Source of the DNA: a virus
Lineage: Duplodnaviria; Heunggongvirae; Uroviricota; Caudoviricetes
IMG/VR virus record: IMGVR_UViG_2718218100_000005
DNA length: 23,278 nt
Strand: one strand, 5' to 3'
Part shown: positions 1,862 through 19,203 of the stretch, piece after piece
Layout of the letters: every line of letters begins with the position of its first letter
Position numbering within the stretch: the first letter of the stretch is position 1
Notes under the pieces: model-generated
What the model saw: only the letters and a program-made list of their open reading frames with translations
What the model was told of the DNA's origin: nothing
The model's database searches: none
Made by a program: the position numbers and the translations under genes

Positions 1862-1945
1862 TTAACGGTTCACATCCCGAAAATCTGCGCTTCTGGCTGA
1901 AAGCCTGTCCGGTGGTCCTTCGTGAGCGATTTCATCAACAATGTA
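1862..1945 (-). pseudogene. continuation of the gpD-like gene on the other side of IS30, ending after 27 codons
   Basis: After removing IS30 plus one copy of the AG duplication the gpD frame continues in phase as YIVDEIAHEGPPDRLSARSADFRDVNR-stop; gpD-like similarity stops near 1862, implying a deletion of the remaining approx 300 codons. Confidence 0.5.
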
Positions 1946-2005
1946 AGTGTAGATTCAATTGGTCAACGCAACAGTTATGTGAAAACATGGGGTTGCGGAG
2001 GTTTG

Positions 2006-3018
2006 GAACTATGGAAGAACGGAACAGGCTTCAGTGAAATAGCGAATATCCTGGGTTCAAAACCCGGAACGATCTTCACTATGTTAAGGGATACTGGCGG
2101 CATAAAACCCCATGAGCGTAAGCGGGCTGTAGCTCACCTGACACTGTCTGAGCGCGAGGAGATACGAGCTGGTTTGTCAGCCAAAATGAGCATTCGTGCG
2201 ATAGCTACTGCGCTGAATCGCAGTCCTTCGACGATCTCACGTGAAGTTCAGCGTAATCGGGGCAGACGCTATTACAAAGCTGTTGATGCTAATAACCGAG
2301 CCAACAGAATGGCGAAAAGGCCAAAACCGTGCTTACTGGATCAAAATTTACCATTGCGAAAGCTTGTTCTGGAAAAGCTGGAGATGAAATGGTCTCCAGA
2401 GCAAATATCAGGATGGTTAAGGCGAACAAAACCACGTCAAAAAACGCTGCGAATATCACCTGAGACAATTTATAAAACGCTGTACTTTCGTAGCCGTGAA
2501 GCGCTACACCACCTGAATATACAGCATCTGCGACGGTCGCATAGCCTTCGCCATGGCAGGCGTCATACCCGCAAAGGCGAAAGAGGTACGATTAACATAG
2601 TGAACGGAACACCAATTCACGAACGTTCCCGAAATATCGATAACAGACGCTCTCTAGGGCATTGGGAGGGCGATTTAGTCTCAGGTACAAAAAACTCTCA
2701 TATAGCCACACTTGTAGACCGAAAATCACGTTATACGATCATCCTCAGACTCAGGGGCAAAGATTCTGTCTCAGTAAATCAGGCTCTTACCGACAAATTC
2801 CTGAGTTTACCGTCAGAACTCAGAAAATCACTGACATGGGACAGAGGAATGGAACTGGCCAGACATCTAGAATTTACTGTCAGCACCGGCGTTAAAGTTT
2901 ACTTCTGCGATCCTCAGAGTCCTTGGCAGCGGGGAACAAATGAGAACACAAATGGGCTAATTCGGCAGTACTTTCCTAAAAAGACATGTCTTGCCCAATA
3001 TACTCAACATGAACTAGA
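2006..3018 (+). pseudogene. IS30 transposase (InsI-like), 5' and 3' disrupted
   Basis: ORF 1922..3058 matches IS30 transposase from ELWKNGTGFSEIANILGS... to ...AQYTQHEL; N-terminus upstream of ELWK is read-through of the terminal repeat (no native start), 3' end runs into the IS629 terminus at 3019. Confidence 0.85.
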
Positions 3019-3060
3019 TGAACCGCCCCGGGTTTCCTGGAGAGTGTTTTATCTGTGAAC

Positions 3061-3951
3061 TCAGGCTGCCAGATCATCGTTTCCGATGGAAGCATAATAA
3101 GCTTTTTCTGCTTCTGCCGGAGGAGTATGGCCCAGCCTTCCCAGCAATCGTCGATTGTTATACCAGTCCACCCACGTTAGTGTGGCCAGTTCCACTTCTG
3201 CACGGTTTTTCCAGCTCTTACGGTGTATTACCTCCGCTTTGTAAAGACCATTGATGCTCTCAGCCATCGCGTTGTCATACGAGTCGCCTGTACTCCCTGT
3301 TGATGCCAGTAATCCGGCTTCTTTTAGTCGCTCCGTATAGGCCAGTGACACATACTGAGAGCCTTTATCGCTGTGATGGATGGTGCCAGACGGACGACGG
3401 GCCCACAACGCCTGCTCCAGCGCATCCAGCACGAATGTCGTTTCCATAGACGATGAGACCCGCCACCCCACGATGTATCCGGCAAACACATCAATGATAA
3501 ACGCCACATAGACGAAGCCCTGCCATGTGCTGACGTAAGTAAAATCAGCCACCCACAGCTGGTCAGGTCGTTCTGCCACGAACTGACGGTTTACGCGGTC
3601 GCCTGCGGCAACGGCTTTCCGGCTGATGGTCGTACGGACCTTTTTACCCCGGAGAACACCGGCAAGTCCCATAACCGCCATGAGACGTGCCACTGTACAT
3701 CTGGCCACCCTGATTCCTTCCCGTAACAACTGACGCCAGACTTTACGCACACCGTACACCTGATGATTTTCATCGTATACGCGCTGTATCTCTCTCTTCA
3801 GCCAGTCGTCGTGCTGCGCACGGGCACTGCGTTTATCCGGATGATGTCGCTGTTGCTGACAATGGTAATACGTTGACGGGGCAATATGCAGTTCGCTGCA
3901 TACCGGTCCGACCCCGTACTGCTCACGCAGCTTATCCAGCAGTGGCATCAT
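3061..3951 (-). CDS. IS3-family transposase OrfB (DDE integrase-like catalytic domain)
   Basis: 296-aa ORF overlapping orfA by ATGA; contains DDE-type motifs ([30 protein letters not shown]); probably expressed as OrfAB fusion by frameshift. Confidence 0.85.
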
Positions 3952-4274
3952 TTTTTCCAGAGGCGGTCGAACTCCGCCTTCGCAAAATAAGCGGAAGCCT
4001 GGCGAAGGATATCGTTACTGCGGCGCAGTTCACGATTTTCACGTTCCAGCTCTTTCAGACGCTGACGTTCAGCGCTGGTGAGCCCACCATCACCGCCCCC
4101 GGTATCCCGCTCATGCTGGCGAACCCAGACACGCAGAGTCTCCGGCGTACAGCCAATCTTTGGGGCAATGGAACAAATTGCCGCCCACTGTGAGTCATAT
4201 TCATCCTGACTTTCCAGAACCATACGAATCGCCCGCTGACGGACTTCGGGGGAAAAACGAGTATTTTTAGTCAT
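3948..4274 (-). CDS. IS3-family transposase OrfA (HTH)
   Basis: 108-aa [54 protein letters not shown]...; leucine-zipper-like C-terminus; typical IS629 OrfA. Confidence 0.85.
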
Positions 4275-4329
4275 CCTGTTTACCTCTTTCTCAGGGAGTT
4301 TAGTCTCCAGGATTTCCGGGGCGGTTCAA

Positions 4330-4428
4330 GATCTGGTTGCTGCTCAGCTAAACAACAGACCGAGAAAGACACTGAAGTTCAAAACACCGAAAGAGATAAT
4401 TGAAAGGGGTGTTGCATTGACAGATTGA
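4330..4428 (+). pseudogene. IS30 transposase 3' segment displaced by the IS629 insertion
   Basis: Translation DLVAAQLNNRPRKTLKFKTPKEIIERGVALTD-stop continues the transposase reading frame broken at 3018. Confidence 0.8.
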
Positions 4429-4435
4429 ATCTACA

Positions 4436-4702
4436 AGTGCCTTTTTCTGTCAGCGGTTCTCCTTTCCAGCCAATGAGAACCGTCAGGCGCGCGCCCCGTG
4501 GCGGTAGCTGCAACTGACCATCTGCATCATCCAGCGTGATGGTGAGCTGGTCCGCCTCAAATCCCCGGTTGTCGGTCAGTGACAGGCTCATCAGGCGCTC
4601 TGCCACGCCTGACAGCGTTTTACCCTCCGCGAGAATATCAAAATCCGGCACTTTCACGTGGTCTGTGCCCTGACTGAGCAATTGCATGGTGGTGTCGGTC
4701 AT
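4436..4702 (-). pseudogene. P2 gpD-like tail protein, N-terminal fragment cut by IS30
   Basis: Minus-strand translation MTDTTMQLLSQGTDHVKVPDFDILAEGKTLSGVAERLMSLSLTDNRGFEADQLTITLDDADGQLQLPPRGARLTVLIGWKG...; resembles the conserved N-terminus of phage late control gene D/gpD tail proteins; SD GGGAGGG upstream; frame enters IS30 at 4435. Confidence 0.65.
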
Positions 4703-4859
4703 CTGTTCCCTCCCTGTGCGGCATGGTCGCATGTGCGTGCGGAGGGGGTTACTGCTTTTTGTTGTCGCCGTGGCGGGAGAACGGCGCAGGGGTGAGATTA
4801 CGCGCGTGGTGGGTGATGATTGTTGCCGAATCATTTAACGGATACAAGGGGCTGAAGCT

Positions 4860-6044
4860 ATGAGTGAAACTCGTTTTCATGGTGCCCGTGTTACGGAAAG
4901 TACCGACCTGGTAACAGCGATTAATGATGTTGATTCCAGTGTTATCGGTATCGTGGCAACGGCAGATGATGCGGACGCGGAGCTGTTCCCGCTGAACAAG
5001 CCCACACTGCTGACCCGCGTCAATGACGTGCTGGGAAAATGCGGGACTACGGGGACGCTTTATCGTGCGCTTAAGGCTATCGCAGACCAGGTGAGCACAA
5101 AAGTGATCGTCGTTCGCGTGGCTGAACACAAAGAAGAAGGCGGTAAGACGCAGGATCAACTGGTTATCGGTGGTTCTGAATCTGACGGCAGCTATACGGG
5201 GATGTATGCGCTGCTTGTTGCAGAGCAGGATGAAAGCATCGGATACCGTCCGCGTATTCTGGCCGCGCCGGAGCTGGACACGGAGGCGGTAACAAAATCC
5301 CTGTGCGTGATTGCGGGTAAACTGCGCGCGTTTGTGTATGCCACATGTCATGGTTGTAACACGATGGCTGAGGCGATTACCTACCGCCAGAAATTCAACG
5401 AACGTGAGGTGATGCTCTTATGGCCTGACTTCATCGCCTACAACCTGAAAAGTGGCAAAAACGAAACGTTCCCCGCGCCTGCTTATGCGTGCGGCCTTCG
5501 TGCGTACATTGACCATGAGCAGGGCTGGCACAAATCGCTGTCCAACGTTCCGGTTAAAAATGTGCTTGGGATGTCGAGGCATGTGTTCTGGTCGTTGCAG
5601 GCCGAAGACAGTGATGCCAACAGCCTCAACAACAAAGAAATCACGACCATTATTCGTCGCAACGGGTTCCGCTTCTGGGGCAACCGCACACCGGAAACGA
5701 ACGCCTACATCTTTGAGGTGTATACCCGAACCGCACAGGTGCTGGCTGATTCAATTGCGGAAGCGCAGTTTGAAACCATCGACAGTCCACTGACACCTGC
5801 GAACGTGAAGGATGTTATCAGTGCCATCAGGGCAAAACTGGATTCACTGGTTACTGCCGGGAAACTGATTGGCGCGGAGTGCTGGTATGACATCGAGGAT
5901 AACAGCACCACGAATTTACGTCAGGGGCGTGTGCGTATTCGCTACAAATATACGCCCGTTCCTCCGCTGGAAGACATGGAGCTTTACCAGTCGTTTACTG
6001 ATGAATTCTTTGGTCCCGCATTTGCGGTGCTGGGAGGTGCCTGA
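4860..6044 (+). CDS. contractile tail sheath protein (P2 gpFI family)
   Basis: 394-aa ORF; blocks typical of P2 FI sheath (DADAELFPLNKP, QGWHKSLSNV, RRNGFRFWGNRT, YTPVPPLE); RBS AAGGGG 8 nt upstream; stop overlaps next start (ATGA-type coupling at 6042-6046). Confidence 0.9.
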   Translation: MSETRFHGARVTESTDLVTAINDVDSSVIGIVATADDADAELFPLNKPTLLTRVNDVLGKCGTTGTLYRALKAIADQVSTKVIVVRVAEHKEEGGKTQDQLVIGGSESDGSYTGMYALLVAEQDESIGYRPRILAAPELDTEAVTKSLCVIAGKLRAFVYATCHGCNTMAEAITYRQKFNEREVMLLWPDFIAYNLKSGKNETFPAPAYACGLRAYIDHEQGWHKSLSNVPVKNVLGMSRHVFWSLQAEDSDANSLNNKEITTIIRRNGFRFWGNRTPETNAYIFEVYTRTAQVLADSIAEAQFETIDSPLTPANVKDVISAIRAKLDSLVTAGKLIGAECWYDIEDNSTTNLRQGRVRIRYKYTPVPPLEDMELYQSFTDEFFGPAFAVLGGA

Positions 6045-6556
6045 TGGCTGTACCAAAACATCTTCGCTTTTTTACGCTGTTTGTGGATGGTGAAAACGAA
6101 GTGGGTAAGGTGACGTCCGTCACCCTGCCTAAACTGACGCGCAAAACCGACAGCTACCGGGGTGGTGGCATGATGGGTGCGGTAAGTATTGACCTCGGCC
6201 TGGACGACTCCGCGCTTGATGCGAGCTTTGTCATGGGGGGCGCAGTTCGTGAGCTGTTCCTGAAGTATGGCGGCACGATTGACGGCACGCTACTGCGTTT
6301 TGCGGGGGAATACTACACCGATGATGAAAGCGACCTGTATGAAGTCGAAATGCGCGGACGTGTGACGGAAATTGATATGGGGGAAGCCAAACAGGGCGAA
6401 GCCACATCACACACTTACGCCATTAAAAACACCTACTACAAGCTGAGTGTTAACGATCGCCCGTTGTGGGAGATTGACCTGCTGAACTTCATTTACCGGA
6501 AGGACGGCAAGGACATTGTGCCCGATCGCATCCGTTCCGCGCTTGGGCTTGGCTGA
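6044..6556 (+). CDS. tail tube protein (P2 gpFII family)
   Basis: 170-aa ORF immediately after the sheath gene; LPKLTRKTDSYRGGGM motif as in P2 FII. Confidence 0.85.
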   Translation: MAVPKHLRFFTLFVDGENEVGKVTSVTLPKLTRKTDSYRGGGMMGAVSIDLGLDDSALDASFVMGGAVRELFLKYGGTIDGTLLRFAGEYYTDDESDLYEVEMRGRVTEIDMGEAKQGEATSHTYAIKNTYYKLSVNDRPLWEIDLLNFIYRKDGKDIVPDRIRSALGLG

Positions 6557-6610
6557 TAAGTAATATGCAGGCGGCGCAGTGCGTCGCCTCTGACTGAAAG
6601 GAGTTTCCTG

Positions 6611-6976
6611 ATGAAAGAGACGAAAAACATCGATACCGAAAACACGGTAGTTACTGACACTGTGAAAGAAACCAGTGAGCGTGGTGTAAAACTTACCCAA
6701 CCAATTGAGCGAGGCGGCGAAAAAATCACGTATGTGGAGATCACCGGGGCTATTGAGCAGGCTGGATCTCTGCGAGATTTGTCGCTGTCTGATGTGCTGA
6801 ATCTGAAAGCGGAATCCATGTTTACGCTGCTGTCACGCGTGACATCACCGCGACTGGATGAAGTGACGATCAAAAAAATGGCATCCCGTGACTTTATTCA
6901 GTTATGTGTGGTTGCCGTAAATTTTTTGAGCGGTGCGGACTCTGGCGGGAAGAACGAACAGGCGACGGAAGCCTGA
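6611..6976 (+). CDS. tail assembly chaperone (P2 gpE-like)
   Basis: 121-aa ORF between tube and tape measure genes with SD AAAGGAG; contains slippery heptamer T_TTT_TTG in frame at 6922-6928. Confidence 0.7.
   Translation: MKETKNIDTENTVVTDTVKETSERGVKLTQPIERGGEKITYVEITGAIEQAGSLRDLSLSDVLNLKAESMFTLLSRVTSPRLDEVTIKKMASRDFIQLCVVAVNFLSGADSGGKNEQATEA
6922..6928 (+). other. programmed -1 ribosomal frameshift site (TTTTTTG) producing E+E' fusion
   Basis: Heptamer positioned as X_XXY_YYZ in the E frame; the -1 frame is open from here to 7140 and ends just inside the tape measure gene, the arrangement conserved in P2 E/E' and lambda G/GT. Confidence 0.7.
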
Positions 6977-7140
6977 TCACGGTTGTGTGCTTTGAGCACA
7001 TAGAAGACTTTGTGGCAGATATTGCCGTTATTTTTAACTGGTCGCCCGCCGAAATCTTCATGATGACGCCCGGCGAAGTGGTTAGCTGGCGTGAGCGGGC
7101 GGCACTTCGCAGCGGGAATGCAGACAATGAAGACTCTTGA
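6928..7140 (+). CDS. E' extension (-1 frame) of the tail chaperone
   Basis: 71 codons open in the -1 frame (ERCGLWREERTGDGSLITVV...RERAALRSGNADNEDS) reachable only by frameshifting at 6922-6928. Confidence 0.65.
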   Translation, partial: ERCGLWREERTGDGSLITVVCFEHIEDFVADIAVIFNWSPAEIFMMTPGEVVSWRERAALRSGNADNEDS

Positions 7141-9930
7141 TATCCGGGTCGCTTTCAGCGCCGTTGACAGGCTGACCCGACCTGCCGAAAACGCACGCCG
7201 CCTGATGGGGCAGTTTGGTGACTCCATCCAGCGAACGCAGGGGGCGATCAAAAATCTCGAGCGTCAGGCGCGATCATTTGAGCGCGCCCGCGACGCTGTC
7301 AGTAAAGCGGATGCTGGCATCGTGAAAGCACGACGCCAGCTTAACGCCCTTAATCAGTTACAACGCACGGGTACAGTGCTCAGCGAAAAACAACAAAAGC
7401 TGATGCAGCAGTTAAGCACCCGGCTTGAACGCCTGAATGAATCGCGCACACGGGAAATTCAGAAAATGAGGGAACTTGGCGGAGAGCTGAAACGCCACGG
7501 CATTTCCCTGACAGGCAGCGATAACACCATTCAGCAGGCCATCAGACGCACCGAACAATACAACAACCAGCTTGAACGCGAACGGCAGGCGCTTGCGCGT
7601 GTAACGCAGGCGCGTGAGCGGTATTCGCACGCGCAGGAAACCGCGGGAAAACTGAAAACAGGTGGTGCGCTGGCAATTGGTGCGGCAGCGGCGGGCGGCT
7701 ATGCTGCCGGGCGTTTTTTGCAGCCTGCGATCGGGTTCGGCAAAGAGATGTCCCGCGTTCAGGCACTGACGCGAATCGACAAAAACAGCCCGCAGTTTAA
7801 GGCGCTGCGTGAGCAGGCGTTAAAACTTGCTGAAACACAGTTTACTGCGAGTGATGCCGCCAGTGGGCAGAGCTTTCTGGCAATGGCTGGTTTTACTCCG
7901 CAGGCCATTCAGGCCGCATTGCCCGGTGTTCTTAATATGGCGCTGGCAGGTGGCGTCGAACTCGGCGAGACGGCTGATATAGGCTCCAATATCCTCACAC
8001 AGTTCAACCTGACAGCCGATCAAATGGACCGGGTGGGCGATACGCTGACAGCAGCATTTACCCGGACCAATACTGATTTACGCGCGCTGGGCGAAACCAT
8101 GAAGTATACCGGTCCGGTTGCCGCAAAACTTGGTATCAGTCTTGAAGAAGCGGCGGCCATGGCCGGGATGCTTGCCAATAATGGTCTTCGCGGAAGCGAT
8201 GCTGGCACGGCCATGCGCGCAAGTCTGTCCCGCCTTGCATCACCGCCAAAAGCTGCGGCTGATGCACTGAAAGAGCTGGGGGTGTCAGTTGCTGACGCCA
8301 GAGGCAAAATGCGCCCGATGGAGGATGTGCTGCTTGATCTCTATAAGGCGACACAAAAATACGGACAGGTGGACCAGGTCTCCTTCTTCAAGGACATCGC
8401 CGGAGAAGAGGCGTTCGTTGGTTTGCAGACGCTTGTTGCGGCGGCTGGTTCAGGAGAGCTGCAAAAACTGACCAGAGAATTGCAGGGGGCAAGGGGAGAG
8501 GCCGATCGCGTCGCAAAAGTAATGGCTGATAATCTTGATGGGGACCTGAAAAATCTCGACAGCGCATGGGAAGGTCTTCGTATTCGCATCAGTGATCTGG
8601 TTGACGGTCCGCTGCGTTCTGTCACGCAGTGGCTCACGCGGGGGCTTGAAAAAATCACCTCGCTGGCGCAGGCCCATCCGGTACTGACGCGCCAGCTACT
8701 GATAGCAGGCGGTGCGTTGCTGGCAATGACTGCAACGATTGGCTCGTTGTCGCTGGTTATTGGGGTGCTTTACGGGAAGCTGGCCACCCTGCGTCTTGGT
8801 TTTGACATTCTTACCCGGTCAATGAATGTCGTCAGGGTGTTACCTGCGCTATGGGGAATGGTGACGGGTTCCGTTTCTTTACTGGGAGGCGTTATCGGGG
8901 CGTTGTTCAGTCCGGTTGGTCTTATCGTGGCTGCGCTTGCCGGAGCTGCCGTTCTTATCTGGAAATACTGGGATCCTATCAGGGCTTTCTTTGCCGGGGT
9001 GTTCAGCGGGATTATGGAAAGGCTGACCCCGTTGCGCGACACCTTTGAACGGTTTGGCCCTGTTTTTGACGTAATCGGAAGCGGTTCAGCCAGGTGTTTA
9101 ACTGGTTTAAATCGCTGCTGTCACCGATGGAGTCCAGCAAGGAAACGCTGGATAAATGTACCAGTGCTGGCGAGGTATTCGGTAACGTTCTTGGTGGTGC
9201 GTTACAGCTTGTTCTGACGCCTGCAAAAATGTTGCTGGATACGCTGGCGTGGATACTTGAAAAACTCGGTGTGCTTCCGGATGAAGCGGAAAGGGCGCGC
9301 AAGAAAATCGAAGACGCACAACGTGCGGCCATTCTTCAGGACAAGGTTGCTCTGTTTCAGGGAGACATTGCGAAAATCAATCCGCCGAAGTCTGCGGGAA
9401 ATAGCAATGGCACCGGAGATGATAAACCCAAAGACAACAAACCTCTCACAGACAGCAATACCGGCACGCTACGCAGACTCAGCAAAATTGCTGATAACAC
9501 AGGTAAGCTGGTTGATGAGACAAAAAAACGCATTGGCCCCGGCGATATTGTCTTTAAGAACCTGCCCCGCGCACTTGCTGTTCGTGGGGAGTGGCAGGAG
9601 CGGAAGATTGCGCAGGTCAGTAAGCCTGCCCCCGCAATTAATATCACACCCGTGGTCCCGGCTCCGCTGCCTCCGGCGCTGGTCCCTGTTGTTGCGGCCA
9701 GCTCCCGCCCGGTGGTGGAGGCCATACGATCGCCAGTGGCATCAGTTCCTGCAACTTCCCGTAACCGGGAGCCTGTTGCCTCCGGATTTGGCGGTGAAAT
9801 TCATGTTCATCTGCATAACGTTGTTACGCAGAATCCCCGCGAACTGGCGAAACTGGTCGGCGAAATGGTCAGGGCAGAAATGGAACGGCGCGCCCGTGCC
9901 AGGCGTGGCAGTTTTTACGATAAAGATTGA
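7127..9930 (+). pseudogene. tail tape measure protein (P2 gpT-like) with a reading-frame break near 9068-9095
   Basis: Long coiled-coil N-terminal region, Gly/Ala-rich hydrophobic central segments and a C-terminal region, all typical of tape measure proteins; ORF 7091..9217 and ORF 9094..9930 are in different frames and together span one gene-sized unit (length not a multiple of 3). Confidence 0.75.
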
Positions 9931-9942
9931 GGAGTCATGGCC

Positions 9943-10431
9943 ATGATGATGATCTACGGCATGTTTGTTTTTGAGCTGCGCACGTTGCCGCATCAGCAGT
10001 TACAGCAAAACAAAAGCTGGCGACATGTGAAAAATGAACGCGTTAACCGTTCAGCAAGCTGGCAGTATATCGGTGCAGGTGATGATCGCATCGTTCTTTC
10101 TGGTGTTCTTTATCCTGAGATTACTGGTGGCGAAGTGTCGCTGTCGTTGTTGACCACGCAGGCATATACAGGACGTCCTTGGCCTTTGATTGATGGCGTC
10201 GGGCAGATTTACGGCATGTATGTCCTGACCGGAACGAATACGACCCGCTCCGAGTTTGATCGCTACGGTAAGGCGAAAAAGATAGAATTTTCACTGACTC
10301 TTGAACGCTGTGATGAGGATTTGCGGGAGCGCCTGCAATCCTCATCGTTCAGCGATATGCTGTCCGGCTTCAAAGATAAGGTGACATCATCCCTTAATAG
10401 CGCGGCCAGCTCAGTTAAGGGGCTGCTCTGA
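9943..10431 (+). CDS. tail protein (P2 gpU family)
   Basis: ORF 9937..10431; MMMIYGMFVFELRTLPHQQLQ...WRHV...YIGAGDDRIVLSGVLYPEITGG resembles P2 gpU; SD GAGGAG best spaced for ATG at 9943. Confidence 0.8.
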   Translation: MMMIYGMFVFELRTLPHQQLQQNKSWRHVKNERVNRSASWQYIGAGDDRIVLSGVLYPEITGGEVSLSLLTTQAYTGRPWPLIDGVGQIYGMYVLTGTNTTRSEFDRYGKAKKIEFSLTLERCDEDLRERLQSSSFSDMLSGFKDKVTSSLNSAASSVKGLL

Positions 10432-10507
10432 TTTAACGTATGTCGCCAATTTCCTGATGAAGGTGACTGGCGACTTGCTGTTGTATGTCCTTCTCAGAAA
10501 ATTGTTT

Positions 10508-10536
10508 TTGAATAACAAATAACAGGATTTTATAAT
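10508..10536 (+). promoter_or_regulatory. near-consensus sigma70 promoter (TTGAAT -35, 17-nt spacer, TATAAT -10) for the acetyltransferase cargo gene
   Basis: TTGAAT 10508-10513, TATAAT 10531-10536 in an AT-rich intergenic region. Confidence 0.5.
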
Positions 10537-10587
10537 CTCTTAACCTTATAACATGTGTGGTCTGAAATAATAATTAAGGAGATTATC

Positions 10588-11160
10588 GTGCTATCTTACT
10601 TAATGGCAATTCACTTTGTTTTATTTGGAAACTCTACTAATTTAAAAAACTTCTGGAAACATGAAGTAATTCGGCGGAAACGTATGGATATCTGGAGGCT
10701 TTTAAGAGAGAAAAAGCAGCGTAACCGGAATTTCCTTTTCTGGTGGCGGTTGGCTAACGAAATGTATATTAATGGTAATAAATTACATAAGAAAGCAGCC
10801 AAAAAGTTAAACAGTAAAATAATTAACAAGTTTGGTTGTGAAATAGGATTGGGCGCAAATATTGGAAAAGGGTTGACAATTCCCCATCATGCTGGAATTG
10901 TTGTTCATTTTGCTGTTGATGCGGGTGAAAATCTGGTATTACGACAGAATACTACCATTGGACAGATAGATGGTGATATGCCTAGTTCAAGAGTAAAAAT
11001 TGGTAGTAACGTTGATATCGGAGCTAATTGTTGCATCATTGGATTATCACGTAAAATTGGGGATAATGTAAAAATAGGTGCAATGTCTTTTATAAATAAA
11101 GATATACCATCAAACTGCACATATATAACTAAAAAGAGTGGTGTTGTATTGTATAAATAG
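10588..11160 (+). CDS. hexapeptide-repeat (left-handed beta-helix) acyl/acetyltransferase, serine O-acetyltransferase-like
   Basis: GTG start 7 nt after SD AAGGAGA; tandem hexapeptide repeats (IGLGAN, IGKGLT, IGSNVD, IGANCC, IGLSRK, IGDNVK) and an HHAGIVV...G motif as in CysE/LacA-type transferases; markedly AT-rich versus flanking tail genes. Confidence 0.8.
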   Translation: MLSYLMAIHFVLFGNSTNLKNFWKHEVIRRKRMDIWRLLREKKQRNRNFLFWWRLANEMYINGNKLHKKAAKKLNSKIINKFGCEIGLGANIGKGLTIPHHAGIVVHFAVDAGENLVLRQNTTIGQIDGDMPSSRVKIGSNVDIGANCCIIGLSRKIGDNVKIGAMSFINKDIPSNCTYITKKSGVVLYK

Positions 11161-11170
11161 AGTACATAAA

Positions 11171-11206
11171 GCCATCGATATTTCTGTCGATGGCTTTTTC
11201 TTTTTA
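11171..11206. terminator. rho-independent terminator (8-bp stem GCCATCGA/TCGATGGC plus T run), mainly for the plus-strand acetyltransferase gene
   Basis: Perfect hairpin 11171-11194 followed by TTTTTCTTTTTATT. Confidence 0.7.
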
Positions 11207-11736
11207 TTGTGGGGCGACTGGCCACTCAACATCCGCTGCTACTGTTGTATCAACACGATTCAACAATACCCGATATGTCTTCCATGCAGCCAGTAACGAT
11301 GCCTCTTCCTCCGTCGCAATATCCAAATCTACGGCATCCTGAAGTGGCGCAATATGCTCACTGGCTACCTGCATCAGGCTGTTTTTTGTTTCTTCTGCCT
11401 CCCGTACCCGAAACAGTTTTTCTGCTTCTGCATCTTTCGCCCAGGATGTGCCGTTCCACTTCTGACACTCTCCATCCGGCGACAACCAGGTAACATTTTC
11501 CGGTAACGGACCGAGTTCAGAAATAAATAACGCGTCGCCGGAAGCCACGTCATAAACCGTTTTACCCCGATGATCTTCAACGAGATGCCACGATGCCTCA
11601 TTACTGTTGAAAACAGCCACGAAGCCAGCCGGAATATCTGGCGGTGCAATATCGGTACTGTTTGCTGGCAGACCTGTATGAGGCGGAATGTATGCGTCAC
11701 CTTCACCAATAAATTCATTAGTTCCGGCCAGCAGAT
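11204..11736 (-). pseudogene. tail fibre assembly protein (P2 gpG/Tfa family), 5' end removed by IS629 copy 2
   Basis: Minus-strand frame reads ...[62 protein letters not shown]...[35 protein letters not shown], with the C-terminal motif characteristic of Tfa; open frame runs without start codon up to the IS terminus at 11737. Confidence 0.8.
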
Positions 11737-11790
11737 TGAACCGCCCCGGGAATCCTGGAGACTAAACTCCCTGAGAAAGAGGTAAACAGG

Positions 11791-12117
11791 ATGACTAAAA
11801 ATACACGTTTTTCCCCCGAGGTCCGTCAACGGGCAGTCCGTATGGTTCTGGAAAGTCAGGGCGAATATGACTCACAATGGGCGGCAATTTGTTCCATTGC
11901 CCCAAAGATTGGCTGTACACCAGAGACTCTGCGTGTGTGGGTTCGTCAGCATGAGCGGGATACCGGGGGCGGTGATGGTGGACTCACCACCGCTGAACGT
12001 CAGCGTCTGAAAGAGCTGGAACGTGAAAATCGTGAACTGCGCCGCAGTAACGATATCCTTCGCCAGGCTTCCGCTTATTTTGCGAAGGCGGAGTTCGACC
12101 GCCTCTGGAAAAAATGA
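11791..12117 (+). CDS. IS3-family transposase OrfA
   Basis: 108-aa ORF nearly identical to copy 1 OrfA (differs at a few residues, e.g. AVRMV/QGEYD/LTTAE). Confidence 0.85.
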
Positions 12118-12796
12118 TGCCACTGCTGGATAAGCTGCGTGAGCAGTACGGGGTCGGACCGGTATGCAGCGAACTGCATATTGCCCCGTCAACGTATTAC
12201 CATTGTCAGCAACAGCGACATCATCCGGATAAACGCAGTGCCCGTGCGCAGCACGACGACTGGCTGAAGAGAGAGATACAGCGCGTATACGATGAAAATC
12301 ATCAGGTGTACGGTGTGCGTAAAGTCTGGCGTCAGTTGTTACGGGAAGGAATCAGGGTGGCCAGATGTACAGTGGCACGTCTCATGGCGGTTATGGGACT
12401 TGCCGGTGTTCTCCGGGGTAAAAAGGTCCGTACGACCATCAGCCGGAAAGCCGTTGCCGCAGGCGACCGCGTAAACCGTCAGTTCGTGGCAGAACGACCT
12501 GACCAGCTGTGGGTGGCTGATTTTACTTACGTCAGCACATGGCAGGGCTTCGTCTATGTGGCGTTTATCATTGATGTGTTTGCCGGATACATCGTGGGGT
12601 GGCGGGTCTCATCGTCTATGGAAACGACATTCGTGCTGGATGCACTGGAGCAGGCGTTGTGGGCCCGTCGGCCGTCCGGCACAGTCCATCACAGTGATAA
12701 AGGTTCTCAGTATGTATCACTGGCCTATACGGAGCGACTAAAAGAAGCAAAACTGCTGGCATCAACAGGGAGTACAGGTGACTCGTATGACAATGT
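12114..12796 (+). pseudogene. IS3-family transposase OrfB, 3'-truncated
   Basis: Matches copy 1 OrfB up to ...[11 protein letters not shown] then ends in unrelated sequence (ORF 12114..12806, 230 aa versus 296 aa). Confidence 0.8.
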
Positions 12797-12825
12797 ATTT
12801 TATTAGTTCACATACAATTATCAGA

Positions 12826-13140
12826 TTATTCTGGGAATAAGGTCTGAATATTCTTTTTTATTTTATAAAAATTGCATTCAACTCCGCTAGGCTGATTAGC
12901 CTGGTATGTTTCCTTGATGCTAACGGTATTGAAGGGGAGGTTGTCCTCTGGCCATTCGGCCATCCAGTAGGCAAATGCTGGGTTGCGCTTTATGAGTGCT
13001 AGCCCAGCCAGAAAGGCCGCGCGTTGCGCGCGGCTGCGTTCGGAGGCTGGCAGGCTATCGAGGTAATTGCACGCCTCCTGTTCACTCTTGACGGCGGCGG
13101 GCTTCAGATAGAAACTTATCCGTCTGGTTGGTGTCGTCAT
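12826..13140 (-). CDS. ParR/StbB-like ribbon-helix-helix partition adaptor (possibly C-terminally shortened)
   Basis: 104-aa ORF 4 nt downstream of the parM-like gene; ISFYLKPA...LDSLPASERSRAQRAAFLAGLALI resembles plasmid R1 ParR N-terminal DNA-binding region; 3' end lies in AT-rich DNA next to the IS truncation point. Confidence 0.6.
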   Translation of the reverse strand: MTTPTRRISFYLKPAAVKSEQEACNYLDSLPASERSRAQRAAFLAGLALIKRNPAFAYWMAEWPEDNLPFNTVSIKETYQANQPSGVECNFYKIKKNIQTLFPE

Positions 13141-13144
13141 TGGT

Positions 13145-14104
13145 TTACTCCTTGTTCATTGCGTACAACCCATTAACCAGAGCAAACTGTGGCACCCCGT
13201 CCGCGATGAAAGTCGCATTAACTCCGCAGGCTTCGCGGATAGCGGTTGCCACAATCTCCGCCCCGCCACCGACAACCATCACCCGCCCGTAACCCGAAAA
13301 AACCGCCAGCGCGCGGATCACGCGTTGTTTCAGTGTTTCTTCCTTTTCACGAATAACCGCCATCAGGCTGGCGTAATGCGCGTCATTGTGGATGTGCTGG
13401 CGCAGCCAGGCTTCATCATGGCGATGTTCGATAATGGTATTGGCGATGTGGTGACTGGTGCGCATACCGTTAGTGGCCATCACCGACAGTACGGCATCGG
13501 CCATCAGAGAAACGCCTACGTGTGGATCGCAAAACACCTGGCTGATACCTGCCAGTTGCCCCTGAACCTTTGCCACATCCAGCGTGGTTCCGCCCAAATC
13601 CACAATCAGCAGGGATTCAAACGGACTCATGTCAGCCAGTGCCTTAAAGCCAGCAGGAATGGATTCAGGCATAACCCGTACGTTACGGATAGTGAATGCT
13701 TCGCCGTTCTGGTACTCCACCGGGCGCATGACGTTCGCTTTTTTGCGGTTGATGTTGGCCATGTCCGGCTGTGCGTTTGTATCGAAATACTCGCTCAGTG
13801 GCAGGGTGACAACCACATCCACTTCCTGTGGTGTGATGCCTGATTTGACCAGCGCGTGATGAATGGCAATTACATTCACATCGCTGTACTGGTATTGCGT
13901 GTCGGTCGTCTGGACAAAGCGATCGCTGACCGGATCAAAACCATAGCGCACGCCATCAAGCATGTAGTTCGCGGGCTGCGTGCCACCGAATGGCGCAGAC
14001 CATTCCGACTTGAAGCTGTTCGGGCTGATGGCGTTGCGGCGTTCGCCGTTCTCAGTCCATGCCAGCTTGATGTTGGTGGAGCCGTCGTCGATACAAATTT
14101 TCAT
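13145..14104 (-). CDS. ParM/StbA-like actin-type segregation ATPase
   Basis: 319-aa ORF starting MKICIDDGSTNIKLAW; co-linear similarity to plasmid R1 ParM (ISPNSFK, YSDVNV, HHAL, VMPESIPAG, DLGGTTLD, GVSL, FSGY, GGGAE, LVNG motifs). Confidence 0.8.
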   Translation of the reverse strand: MKICIDDGSTNIKLAWTENGERRNAISPNSFKSEWSAPFGGTQPANYMLDGVRYGFDPVSDRFVQTTDTQYQYSDVNVIAIHHALVKSGITPQEVDVVVTLPLSEYFDTNAQPDMANINRKKANVMRPVEYQNGEAFTIRNVRVMPESIPAGFKALADMSPFESLLIVDLGGTTLDVAKVQGQLAGISQVFCDPHVGVSLMADAVLSVMATNGMRTSHHIANTIIEHRHDEAWLRQHIHNDAHYASLMAVIREKEETLKQRVIRALAVFSGYGRVMVVGGGAEIVATAIREACGVNATFIADGVPQFALVNGLYAMNKE

Positions 14105-14180
14105 GTCGCTTTTCCTTATGTTGATTAATTAATCGGTTACAGGATTTTTAAATCCCGCTTTTGCCTGTTTTGTGCGCGCT

Positions 14181-17003
14181 TCATATATCGCGGCGCGTTT
14201 TTTGCTCATTTACGGGATTTGTGAGTCCCGTTTCTGTCTGTTTTTTGTTTCCACTGGTCAGGCCACCCCGCAGCAGGTCTGCTTTGCGGCTGGCGCGTTC
14301 AGTGGTTTCACTGATTCTCTGTGCGTGCTCTGCGTCGCGGATGGCGCGCAGCATGTCAGAAAGCACGGTAACGGGTGTTTTCATGGTGTTCTGGTCCTGC
14401 TGAAGTGTGGATGCCAGGCGTGCGGCGGCTTCAGGGTCTGATGCCCCCAGCTGTGCCAGATAGCTGGCGACCGGGTTATGGCGGATCTCCGTGCTGCTTA
14501 CGCCATGATTACGGCTCAGGCGCTGCCAGAGCTGCGTGATTCGGCTGTCCGGGCGGGTATCCGGTTTGCGTACAATTTCAAATCCCTGCGGTGCAATGAT
14601 GCTGCCGTCAACGTACAGACTGCCGCCCCGTAACAGGTGCTGCATCTGTTGTTCACCGATATGCAGGCCGAGAGATTCAGCAGACTCCCGCCATTCTTTA
14701 GCGAGTAATTCGTGGTTATCAGGCAAAGGCCGCTGCTGTTTGCGGCTCTGTGTCCAGCTCTGCATTTCATCACTGCTGTTTTTTGCCTGTTTGTCACGAA
14801 GCGAACGCATCAGCGCCCGGCGTTCGTGCCGTTTCAGTGAGCGCATCCATTCGTTCACGTCAACGCCGTCAGGAAGCTGCGGCCACGGTGCTGGCCGTTC
14901 TTCCGGCTGTTCTGTCCCGTTGTTGTCCGTTTCCTGTACACGGGGACAGTTATTGCCACGAGTCCAAGGGGCGGCAGGGCCGCCCTGAAGGTCAAAACCA
15001 TTTTCGCGGGCGCTGTCTTCTACTCCCGGTTTACGTCTTACCAGCTTCCAGTTATCCGGGTGCGTGCACACACGGGAGGATTCCCCGATGAGTGGTGACC
15101 AGATCCCGTAAATCTGTACGCTCTGTTCGCCGTAATCGTTCAGCTCATCTGCGAGGTCGTAGGCGGTGCGAATCAGGTAGTCCTTGCGTGGAACAAGTAC
15201 GCCTCCCTGTTTCTCAATGTAGGTGGTAAAACATCCGGCATCAGCGGCAGCAAGAACCGCATCCATTGCGTCATCCTTCAGCCGTTGCGGGCCTTCCGGG
15301 TTGCGTGCCATCTGGCTGGCAAGGCGACGCAGTTCACGCCACACCTGACGGGAGGGGATGCCAAAGAACTGGAACTGGCGGACCCGGTGAAGGCGCGCCC
15401 AGCCAATGGCGCGTTCCACGCTCTCGGTCATTGATTTTCCGGTTTCGTGGTCAACGCGTGGTTTGCCTGTTTTCGGGTCGATGCCATCCACGGCGCGGCT
15501 GTCCAGGTTTTTTCCGATGTAGGTGGCGATGTAGCTGGTTGGCGTGCCTTTTGAGCCGTCGACATACTCCGCCTTAAAGCGCGGAGTAATATCATCGCCC
15601 AGCTCGTGACGATCTTCCTGAATGGCAATATCGCGGGTGTGGGACACAATGGTGTCGATTTCTTCCGGATGAGCAAAGACCATCATATGCCAGTGCACGG
15701 TGCCGTCATGGTGAGGCTCCACCGTGCGGATGCCATACCAGCGCAGGCCGTCGCGGTTCAGTTTCTTGCGGACCGCCGCAAAAAACGTGTTAACCAGGTA
15801 ATCGCTGGAGTCGCGCATGGTGGCCCCGTTCCATTTGGGATTCGGATGACCGTTCTCTGTTGTAGCGTGGTATTTTGACGGGCAGGTGACAGTCAGAAAC
15901 ACCGCTTTGTCGCCACGGGCTTCGGCCAGAAGTTCCAGCCCCTTCATGGTGGCCATCATTTCTGCCTTACGGTGAACCGGGTTACTTACTCCCGCGTAAT
16001 ACACTGTCTCGAGATCAATCGTGAACCCGTCTTCGTTTTCCAGCATGAAACTTTTCAGGAAATCGCGTGTTTTCTCGCGCTGTGCGCGAAACTCGCTTAA
16101 CGCGTCCTGGCTCAGATAGGGCGATGTTTTTCTGGAAACCAGACAGGCGGCGCGGAGTTGTTCTTCTCTCCACTCGCAACGTAACAGCCACAGTTTGCGT
16201 TTCCACCATTCCGCACAGGTCAGGCGAAGGATTGCGCCCGGCAGCAGCTCCGTGTCCGGTTCGTTCCTCCGGTCTTTGTCTGTTGTCAGTGCGTCATAAT
16301 GTGGAGGCATGGCGTGCAGGTGTAACGCCATGCGGGCCAGCATCTGATACGCCTTCAGCGTTACATCCATGGTCAGTTCGCCATCGGTCGCGCCAAAGCC
16401 ATCGCAGAGTTTTTCGAAGGTGCTGCTGAACATCGCCGCCGTCATGGTGGCCAGCGTCTGTATCTGGTGTTTGTTGAGCTGCGGCAGGTAAAGCAAATCG
16501 TCCAGGCGTTCGCGTCCGGCAAGGGAGCGATAACCCTGTGTCAGCCAGCGGTGATCGGTGCGCTCCAGACGTTCGAATATTTTGCGCAGGTTTCCGCGCG
16601 CGTAGCGTTCAGCCTGCCAGCTCTTTTTGCCTTTCTGACGATCGGCTTCCTGTTTTTTGCGCAGGAAGGAGAGGTGGCGAATAAGCGGATCGCGCAGATA
16701 GGACGGCAGCAGGCGCAGCGAGGCCATGGCTTCATCCACCGCACCGCGTGCCTGTTTTCTGGCGTCTCCTGCCAGTGTGATGGTTTTGTCCTGTTTTTCC
16801 TGTGCGTCCAGGCTTTTATTAATCAGGTTGCCCAGCGGCGTTGCGGAGAACGCCGCATCAGCCATTTCCTGGCGGCGCTCGTTCTCTACCCGGTAGGCAT
16901 CCAGCCAGGAGGAAAGCGCGGATTCAGGAGCGGGGATCCCCGTTCCTTCACGCCCCACTGCGTGGCGCGGTTGTTGCCAGTCCCTGATGTACTCTGCCGT
17001 CAT
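14181..17003 (-). CDS. rolling-circle replication initiator endonuclease (P2 gpA family)
   Basis: 940-aa ORF with HUH-type motif (GTVHWHMMVF) and tyrosine motif (TSYIATYIGKN) typical of P2/186 gene A proteins. Confidence 0.85.
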   Translation of the reverse strand: MTAEYIRDWQQPRHAVGREGTGIPAPESALSSWLDAYRVENERRQEMADAAFSATPLGNLINKSLDAQEKQDKTITLAGDARKQARGAVDEAMASLRLLPSYLRDPLIRHLSFLRKKQEADRQKGKKSWQAERYARGNLRKIFERLERTDHRWLTQGYRSLAGRERLDDLLYLPQLNKHQIQTLATMTAAMFSSTFEKLCDGFGATDGELTMDVTLKAYQMLARMALHLHAMPPHYDALTTDKDRRNEPDTELLPGAILRLTCAEWWKRKLWLLRCEWREEQLRAACLVSRKTSPYLSQDALSEFRAQREKTRDFLKSFMLENEDGFTIDLETVYYAGVSNPVHRKAEMMATMKGLELLAEARGDKAVFLTVTCPSKYHATTENGHPNPKWNGATMRDSSDYLVNTFFAAVRKKLNRDGLRWYGIRTVEPHHDGTVHWHMMVFAHPEEIDTIVSHTRDIAIQEDRHELGDDITPRFKAEYVDGSKGTPTSYIATYIGKNLDSRAVDGIDPKTGKPRVDHETGKSMTESVERAIGWARLHRVRQFQFFGIPSRQVWRELRRLASQMARNPEGPQRLKDDAMDAVLAAADAGCFTTYIEKQGGVLVPRKDYLIRTAYDLADELNDYGEQSVQIYGIWSPLIGESSRVCTHPDNWKLVRRKPGVEDSARENGFDLQGGPAAPWTRGNNCPRVQETDNNGTEQPEERPAPWPQLPDGVDVNEWMRSLKRHERRALMRSLRDKQAKNSSDEMQSWTQSRKQQRPLPDNHELLAKEWRESAESLGLHIGEQQMQHLLRGGSLYVDGSIIAPQGFEIVRKPDTRPDSRITQLWQRLSRNHGVSSTEIRHNPVASYLAQLGASDPEAAARLASTLQQDQNTMKTPVTVLSDMLRAIRDAEHAQRISETTERASRKADLLRGGLTSGNKKQTETGLTNPVNEQKTRRDI

Positions 17004-18786: not shown

Positions 18787-19203
18787 CTATGCGTTAAATA
18801 CGGCACGTTGCGCGTCATCAATGAATACAGCTTGAGAGCGTTCTATCAGGCGGAGATTTGTCAGAAGCTCTGACTCTTTTGTGTGGTAAGGCGTTATCAG
18901 GTATTTGCCGTGCAGTTCGGCAATAATGGTGTATTGCAGCATCATTGCTGAACCAAGAATATAAATGCAGCGTCCAATGCTGGACGGATTCATGGCTGCA
19001 ACTGTTGACTGTGTTTTAAGAGTGTCGATTTCTTTGCTCTGTTCCTCAATAACTTTGGCTGCTTCAGGGGTGGCTATTGCGATGGTCAGTGCGTAAAGCG
19101 CTGCCATATGTTGATTATCTTTCTGGGCTGCCCTGGACAGCTTGTCTTGCTCTGCTGACACTATTTTTAATGTATTGATAATATTTTTTTCTTTTGCGTT
19201 CAT
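18787..19203 (-). CDS. hypothetical protein (early operon)
   Basis: 138-aa ORF with SD GGAG 7 nt upstream of ATG. Confidence 0.5.
   Translation of the reverse strand: MNAKEKNIINTLKIVSAEQDKLSRAAQKDNQHMAALYALTIAIATPEAAKVIEEQSKEIDTLKTQSTVAAMNPSSIGRCIYILGSAMMLQYTIIAELHGKYLITPYHTKESELLTNLRLIERSQAVFIDDAQRAVFNA

Follow-up and report, generated by a model that had tools for sequence, protein, structure and literature searches.

The tail gene block of the defective prophage Sp13/CP-933T of Escherichia coli O157:H7 follows the gene order of P88-type phages

The prophage at the leuZ–yecA locus and its tail genes

The stretch of DNA analyzed here (IMG/VR record IMGVR_UViG_2718218100_000005; 23,278 nt, hereafter “the window”) is the leuZ–yecA locus of Escherichia coli O157:H7, with a defective P2-like prophage between the flanks pgsA-glyW-cysT-leuZ and yecA. 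The tRNA genes of the left flank were detected in the window sequence as well. Over its whole length the window is 99.9% identical to E. coli O157:H7 chromosomes, and a single place spanning at least 80% of it at ~99.9% identity was found in 261 complete genomes. Gene calls were cross-read from the RefSeq annotation of an identical O157:H7 genome. The prophage is Sp13 of strain Sakai, which we take to be the same element as CP-933T of EDL933, and it is a decayed member of the P88-type branch of the P2-like phages (Peduoviridae). Its tail genes FI to U lie on the strand opposite to D, the tail fibre assembly gene and the replication gene A. We consider it highly probable (roughly 93%) that this orientation is the inherited, clade-defining order of P88-type phages and native to Sp13, as opposed to a local rearrangement. 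We include in this reading an ancestral in situ inversion and expression from a shared activator box, both of which are treated below.

Sp13/CP-933T is already well known as a defective prophage, and the element described under this name by Asadulghani et al. (2009; PMC2669165) is the very one in the window. According to that paper, Sp13 is P2-like and defective, lacks most morphogenetic genes and ogr, and still excises and replicates upon mitomycin C treatment. The passages of it that were searched contain no comment on the orientation of the tail block or on an affiliation with P88-type phages.

The plus-strand block comprises FI, which encodes the tail sheath (4860–6044; Pfam Phage_sheath_1), FII for the tail tube (6044–6556; Phage_tube), the tail chaperone genes E and E′ (6611–7140; in RefSeq, E at 6611–6976 and a GpE-family protein at 6985–7140), the tape measure gene T (7127–9930) and the gene for the tail protein gpU (9937–10431, in RefSeq 9943–10431; Phage_P2_GpU). 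T is a pseudogene, annotated in RefSeq as frameshifted and aligned here with the T genes of P88 and of UTAK-4 (NZ_CP157156). To the left, on the minus strand, are the N-terminal 89 codons of gpD, the tail/baseplate hub (4436–4702; in RefSeq a partial “phage late control D family protein”), separated from FI by a divergent control region of 157 bp (4703–4859). To the right, the variable slot between U and the fibre assembly gene holds a low-GC serine O-acetyltransferase moron on the plus strand (10588–11160). It is followed on the minus strand by the 5′-truncated gene for the tail fibre assembly protein Tfa (11204–11736, in RefSeq 11204–11734; Caudo_TAP). StbB-like and ParM partition genes together with A, the replication endonuclease gene (14181–17003), occupy 12826–17003, also on the minus strand and collinear with P88 and UTAK-4.

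The gpD remnant is 59% identical to residues 15–85 of P2 gpD (pairwise E = 3e-26) and corresponds to the N-terminus of P88 gpD, which at full length matches Pfam Phage_GPD. In the Pfam search, neither E nor the 89 amino acid remnant, which is too short for the model, had a match. The initial annotation of this DNA, made from its letters alone, had named these genes and placed gpD, Tfa and A on the minus strand against a plus-strand FI to U at 4860–10431. Both strands and identities are borne out by the RefSeq annotation of the identical genome, the identities also by the Pfam matches to the sheath, tube, gpU and Tfa proteins and, for gpD, by the P2 alignment and collinearity with P88. Within the block, the E′ open reading frame (ORF; 6904–7140) overlaps E in the -1 frame, with a slippery TTTTTTG at 6922–6928 and AAATTTT just before it at 6919. 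This slip site coincides with the position of the annotated programmed -1 frameshift of P2 E+E′, and an equivalent frameshift is predicted here.

Phage P2 has the same gene set, the same internal order from FI to U, an E/E′ overlap with the T6G slip site and a moron slot beside the fibre assembly gene. Its record confirms the co-direction that the initial annotation had described, with G, FI to U, D, ogr and A all on the plus strand and fun(Z) on the minus strand. The F operon of P2 ends with D (pF-FI-FII-E-E′-T-U-D), whereas the window, with 31–49% protein identity to P2, has FI to U on the opposite strand and a D that starts a divergent unit of its own. The canonical P2 operon structure, in which FI to U and D are co-transcribed and run in the direction of G and A, does not occur in the window. 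It had been proposed that flipping the tail segment would restore the order Tfa, moron, FI to D on one strand. Flipping FI to U does regain the P2 order, but the moron is on the plus strand, and the full series does not come to lie on one strand. In P2, too, the moron that lies between G and pF, fun(Z), is antiparallel to G.

Collinearity with P88-type phages and a prophage at the same site

In a megablast search of positions 4275–11790 against phage genomes, the interval 4435–10437 (gpD remnant, spacer and FI to U) aligned as one collinear match at 91–97% identity with P88, 500465-2, PhiR44_2, P884B11, Citrobacter phage ΦSM and others. The annotated order in these relatives is D(-), FI-FII-E-E′-T-U(+), DNA invertase(-), an alternative fibre/Tfa cassette(+), Tfa(-) and H(-), followed by baseplate, lysis and head genes(-), Q and P(+), and ParM and A(-). 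Each of the five named phages shares with the window the succession of D(-), FI to U(+), a variable slot, Tfa/H(-) and, further on, ParM and A(-). They differ in the content of the slot, which in P88 holds a DNA invertase and an invertible fibre cassette and in the window the acetyltransferase moron. Under the ICTV, genera are delimited by whole-genome nucleotide identity to a type phage; of a P88-type genome the window has only a remnant, and the retained parts are 94–97% identical to P88 (~96.6% for the ParM/A region). The five named phages are complete and viable, whereas in the window ogr, most of D and ~15 kb of virion genes are missing and T is frameshifted. P88, ΦSM and SEN4 are inducible or plaque-forming (PMC5285337, PMC6456863, PMC5261728), and therefore the divergent layout supports a viable virion.

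UTAK-4 has a prophage that is nearly intact, integrated at the same pgsA-glyW-cysT-leuZ site, with the layout hok(-), ogr(-), D(-), then FI to U(+) and the acetyltransferase gene (SAT, +), then Tfa(-), H(-) and, further on, A(-). Window positions 4435–11737 align with it as a single block of 95% identity that runs through both of the breakpoints that had been proposed. The two prophages have in common the integration site and the junction at which U is followed by the acetyltransferase gene and a convergent Tfa. UTAK-4 differs in keeping H, the baseplate, lysis, head and packaging genes, ogr and hok, in having an IS3-family insertion sequence (IS) elsewhere than the IS copies of the window, and in a D that is annotated as shortened. 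In UTAK-4 (13630–14483) and in B-1109, D is annotated as 801 nt plus a small partial ORF, with a 467-bp gap before FI, which suggests either a disruption of D in this sublineage or a problem with the start-codon call.

These alignments bear directly on the initial reading of the locus, a recent inversion of FI to U within the O157 prophage with ends in 4703–4859 and 10432–10587. The strand switches do fall in those two intergenic regions, and P2 itself is co-directional. However, the window is collinear across both points with intact phages and with the near-intact prophage at the same site, and all 101 informative relatives (drawn from the best 80 matches of each of the two surveys described below) share its layout. 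The initial annotation had remarked on the lack of long inverted repeats at the junctions, and our search found no inverted repeats that link the two; a 15-nt pair that it returned (4600–4614 and 9897–9911) looks like chance. There is no breakpoint at either place relative to the true relatives of the prophage, in which the tail block is naturally divergent from D and G, and a rearrangement in this prophage is refuted. A recent inversion is very unlikely. With the right relatives as the reference, the anomaly disappears.

A misassembly, against which the initial annotation had advised checking, fared no better. IS copies flank the region and no other support for an artefact was found, whereas the 261 complete genomes agree at ~99.9% identity and independently sequenced phage genomes show the same layout. 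The probability of an assembly artefact is negligible.

Distribution and ancestry of the divergent layout

The layout was surveyed in IMG/VR, using the best 80 of 427 matches (FI 97–100% identical to that of the window), and in GTDB species representatives, using the best 80 of 165 matches found with an alignment of the window and P2 FI proteins. D(-) stands upstream of FI(+) in every one of the 78 IMG/VR loci with a D match. In GTDB, 23 loci have an FI with 58% or more identity to that of the window, and all of them show ogr(-) and D(-), FI to U(+) and J(-), which brings the count of informative relatives with the divergent layout to 101 of 101. The hosts of these 23 loci belong to ~13 enterobacterial genera (Salmonella, Citrobacter, Edwardsiella, Enterobacter, Kosakonia, Symbiopectobacterium, Mixta, Erwinia, Pantoea, Trabulsiella, Izhakiella, Klebsiella and Pectobacterium), and also include an unnamed Enterobacteriaceae isolate and one contig labelled Vagococcus. 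All informative GTDB loci with a P2-like FI have J, FI, U, D and ogr on one strand.

In regard to the contig with the unexpected label, the GTDB record “Vagococcus sp. WN89Y”, nominally Gram-positive, contains enterobacterial P2-like prophage loci with an FI 97% identical to that of the window. The assembly is probably contaminated or mislabelled.

The divergent layout also occurs in Salmonella phage SEN4 (Senquatrovirus) and in a 2009-era fragment of Serratia phage KSP20, annotated with a gpD-like gene(-) next to a gpFI-like gene(+). In a neighbor-joining tree of FI, the divergent-layout loci form one bipartition found in 100 of 100 bootstraps, with the FI of the window inside this clade; P2, 186, Fels-2 and phiCTX, at 46–48% FI identity, form a co-directional sister group. 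The P88-type branch takes in relatives classified in Xuanwuvirus (P88), Gemsvirus (500465-2) and Senquatrovirus (SEN4) as well as unnamed ones. Of 5,426 complete E. coli genomes, 1,357 contain this D–FI junction in one contiguous piece. Since the P88-type layout is present in about a quarter of complete E. coli genomes, annotation should not count strand switches between D and FI and after U as rearrangements. A large and common P2-like branch has this layout as its ordinary, already sequenced architecture, and P2 is not a universal template for P2-like prophages. The finding marks the branch to which Sp13/CP-933T belongs among P2-like phages and leaves little to pursue as an anomaly. The papers on P88, ΦSM, SEN4 and Sp13 give genome maps without discussing the orientation; neither a search of these papers nor keyword searches yielded an explicit description of a clade-defining inversion or of a regulatory consequence.

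In many relatives a DNA invertase of the Hin/Gin/Pin family is encoded beside U, which raises the possibility that FI to U is a programmed invertible segment. The invertase abuts the end of U in 33 of the 78 close IMG/VR relatives (an acetyltransferase adjoins U in 20), and does so in P88 and 500465-2. However, FI to U has only one orientation in all 78 and all 23 informative relatives of the two surveys, the window has no annotated invertase gene and no inverted repeats at the ends of the block, and the P88 invertase, as annotated, flanks convergent tail-fibre and Tfa cassettes. From this annotation and general knowledge of Gin, Cin and Pin, the P88 cassettes may be read as an invertible fibre segment. 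Programmed switching of the tail block is highly improbable.

How the branch came by its layout can be approached from the P2 arrangement. Given the monophyly of the divergent loci, we infer a single ancestral inversion, in which the ancestor of the branch would have inverted pF-FI…U in situ relative to P2, with the inversion kept in all descendants examined. One end of the flipped unit would lie shortly before the pF activator box and the other at the end of U. The moron/invertase slot would have stayed beside the fibre genes and D-ogr at the prophage end, and in the O157 lineage nothing would have flipped.

The same state could have arisen if a foreign tail module had been imported in the opposite orientation. 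FI is only 45–46% identical to P2 FI, and mosaic exchange is common in phages. However, amino acid identity between P88 and P2 is similar inside the block (31–46%; FI 46%, FII 42%, T 33%, U 46%) and outside it (26–64%; D 49%, J 54%, N 41%, P 44%, Q 47%), and a pF box of the P2 style still precedes FI at a distance close to that in P2. Since the divergence is similar inside and outside the block, an old in situ inversion fits better than a recent import of a foreign module, which we consider unlikely. Whether by inversion or by import, the event is ancestral to the clade and not local.

Predicted late promoters in the D–FI spacer

When 24 P88-type D–FI spacers from diverse hosts are aligned, a conserved core stands out from flanks that vary. 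At the core of the window spacer is a putative Ogr/Delta-type activator box, TGTCGCCGTGGCGGGAGA (4763–4780), which reads TGT-N12-AGA and thus has one mismatch to TGT-N12-ACA, the P2 late-promoter consensus recognized by Ogr (PMC3931495). The box is conserved at the aligned position in relatives. Of 27 spacers, 25 have a single TGT-N12-A(C/G)A, at the aligned place 78.5–88.5 nt before the FI ATG, and the perfect TGT-N12-ACA is found in SEN4, KSP20 and the loci L105 and L107/L108. In the P2 record, the pF and pO boxes read TGT-N12-CCA. From the center of the window box (4771.5), the distance to the FI ATG is 88.5 nt and that to the D ATG 69.5 nt; the P2 pF box is 82.5 nt from the FI ATG. In late promoters that depend on Ogr, Delta or B, a TGT-N12-ACA dyad has its center near -55 of a weak sigma-70 promoter.

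A -10-like GATGAT at 4815–4820 (+), conserved as GAT(T/G)AT, predicts an FI transcript start at ~4827, with the box center at about -55. On the other strand a weaker -10-like GACCAT (4728 to 4723) predicts a D start at ~4716, also ~55 nt from the box center. The two predicted starts are ~111 bp apart, the spacing of the divergent pP and pO starts in the P2 record, where one activator site is annotated. P2 pP/pO is thus a precedent for one activator site that serves two divergent late promoters. Because D heads its strand beyond the spacer, it would need a promoter of its own there.

General scans did not single out the spacer. An exact TGT-N12-ACA scan of the window had one match, at 19143, which is below chance expectation, and none in the D–FI spacer; the one-mismatch box is convincing only because of the comparative alignment. 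In a generic sigma-70 scan of 4300–11800, promoter-like matches were no commoner than in shuffles and none fell in the spacer, as activator-dependent promoters are expected to escape a generic scan.

By analogy with P2, and judging from sequence, we infer that the spacer may hold back-to-back late promoters with the predicted starts given above and a box used in both directions. A single Ogr-type box would then drive FI to U one way and D, with ogr in intact relatives, the other way. We put forward tentatively, as a possibility that falls a little short of an even chance, that the D–FI spacer is a bidirectional late promoter in which one Ogr-type box serves FI to U and a separate D-ogr unit, and that it was born of a single ancient inversion that excised gpD from a P2-style F operon. 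If this is true, the activator gene ogr, downstream of D, is coupled to its own box in a new way. This shared bidirectional Ogr-dependent promoter is a testable prediction, a modest side gain and the sole modestly new angle of the analysis.

Several points weigh against the inherited-order reading with its inversion and shared box. Regarding the box, the right half-site is AGA, not ACA, in most members and AGG in the degenerate relatives L097 and L143, and the D-side -10-like element of the window fits the consensus at 3 of 6 positions. Regarding ancestry, both surveys are samples of longer match lists, and seven GTDB loci that carry no D information were grouped with the P2 type on FI similarity only. 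The single inversion is deduced from monophyly in an FI tree of 85 sequences, as distinct from a whole-genome phylogeny.

Lesions in the O157 copy

The changes that are specific to the O157 prophage are insertions, deletions and a frameshift. An IS30 (plus strand, approximately 1948–4435) entered D after codon 89, and an IS629 then entered that IS30. The IS30 is annotated in RefSeq as “IS30-like transposase, partial” and has terminal inverted repeats at 1937–1973 and 4410–4446; the C-terminus of its transposase resumes at 4329–4435, beyond the nested element. The latter is a full-length IS629/IS1203 on the minus strand (3019–4328), identified from the annotation and its terminal inverted repeats (3019–3043 and 4304–4328). 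On the far side of the IS30, a second gpD fragment (1873–1947, minus strand, ~codons 89–115) was recognized by blastn against UTAK-4 (14394–14474) and P88 (2137–2219, inside gpD). Left of this fragment, a deletion of ~1.5 kb has removed the rest of D along with ogr and hok (UTAK-4 12859–14393).

At the other end of the tail region, a partial IS629 of 1,057 bp (11737–12793, plus strand), inverted relative to the left copy, with which it forms an inverted repeat, stands in place of ~15.3 kb of fibre, baseplate, lysis, head and packaging genes (UTAK-4 21789–37075, absent from the window). Tfa is cut by the IS629 end at 11737 and lacks ~15 N-terminal codons; the full-length homolog in UTAK-4 has 579 nt. 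Next to the partial IS629, ~200 bp at 12794–12994 have no match to UTAK-4 or P88. T has a 1-nt deletion near 9082, which causes the frameshift, and an in-frame 3-nt deletion at 7829. With D split and truncated, ogr deleted, T frameshifted and ~15 kb of virion genes replaced, the retained tail module is non-functional in the O157 lineage.

Positions 4330–11735 are flanked by the two IS629 copies, which make up an inverted repeat of 1,058 nt with 97% complementarity (3272–4329 and 11736–12793), and recombination between them could in principle have flipped the DNA in between. This long repeat and the activity of IS629 at the locus, where eight O157 strains differ, speak for such an event. However, the IS copies lie away from the strand-switch points, and D and Tfa would flip along with FI to U, so that the observed pattern could not be produced in this way. 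In addition, the segment between the IS copies is oriented to A as in IS-free relatives. We regard this explanation as exceedingly improbable.

A chimeric junction query that represented the IS629-inverted configuration was fully matched in 0 of 5,426 genomes. It had nine partial matches, in eight O157 strains and one O39 strain. The eight O157 strains have another IS629 configuration, with a full-length right IS629 copy. In the one of the eight that was inspected, O157:H7 strain 4276, another IS629 directly abuts FI and the gpD remnant and IS30 are lost, with the orientation the same. IS629 thus reshapes this locus within O157.

Features beside the tail block

The acetyltransferase region (10438–11197) has a GC content of ~38–41%, and the acetyltransferase and Tfa pair is present also in the unrelated large phages JL22 and Ro157c2YLVW. 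A terminator-like hairpin with a 13-bp stem (11168–11197) lies between these two convergent genes. An inverted repeat of 20 nt with 85% complementarity connects 10448–10467, just past U, with 11696–11715 at the 5′ end of Tfa. This repeat may have been left behind by a second Tfa cassette in the opposite orientation, like that of the invertible segment of P88.

Directly downstream of A, the ParM and StbB-like plasmid-partition genes (12826–14104) are conserved in P88 (25684–26959) and UTAK-4. Plasmid-type partition genes are unusual for an integrating P2-like phage.

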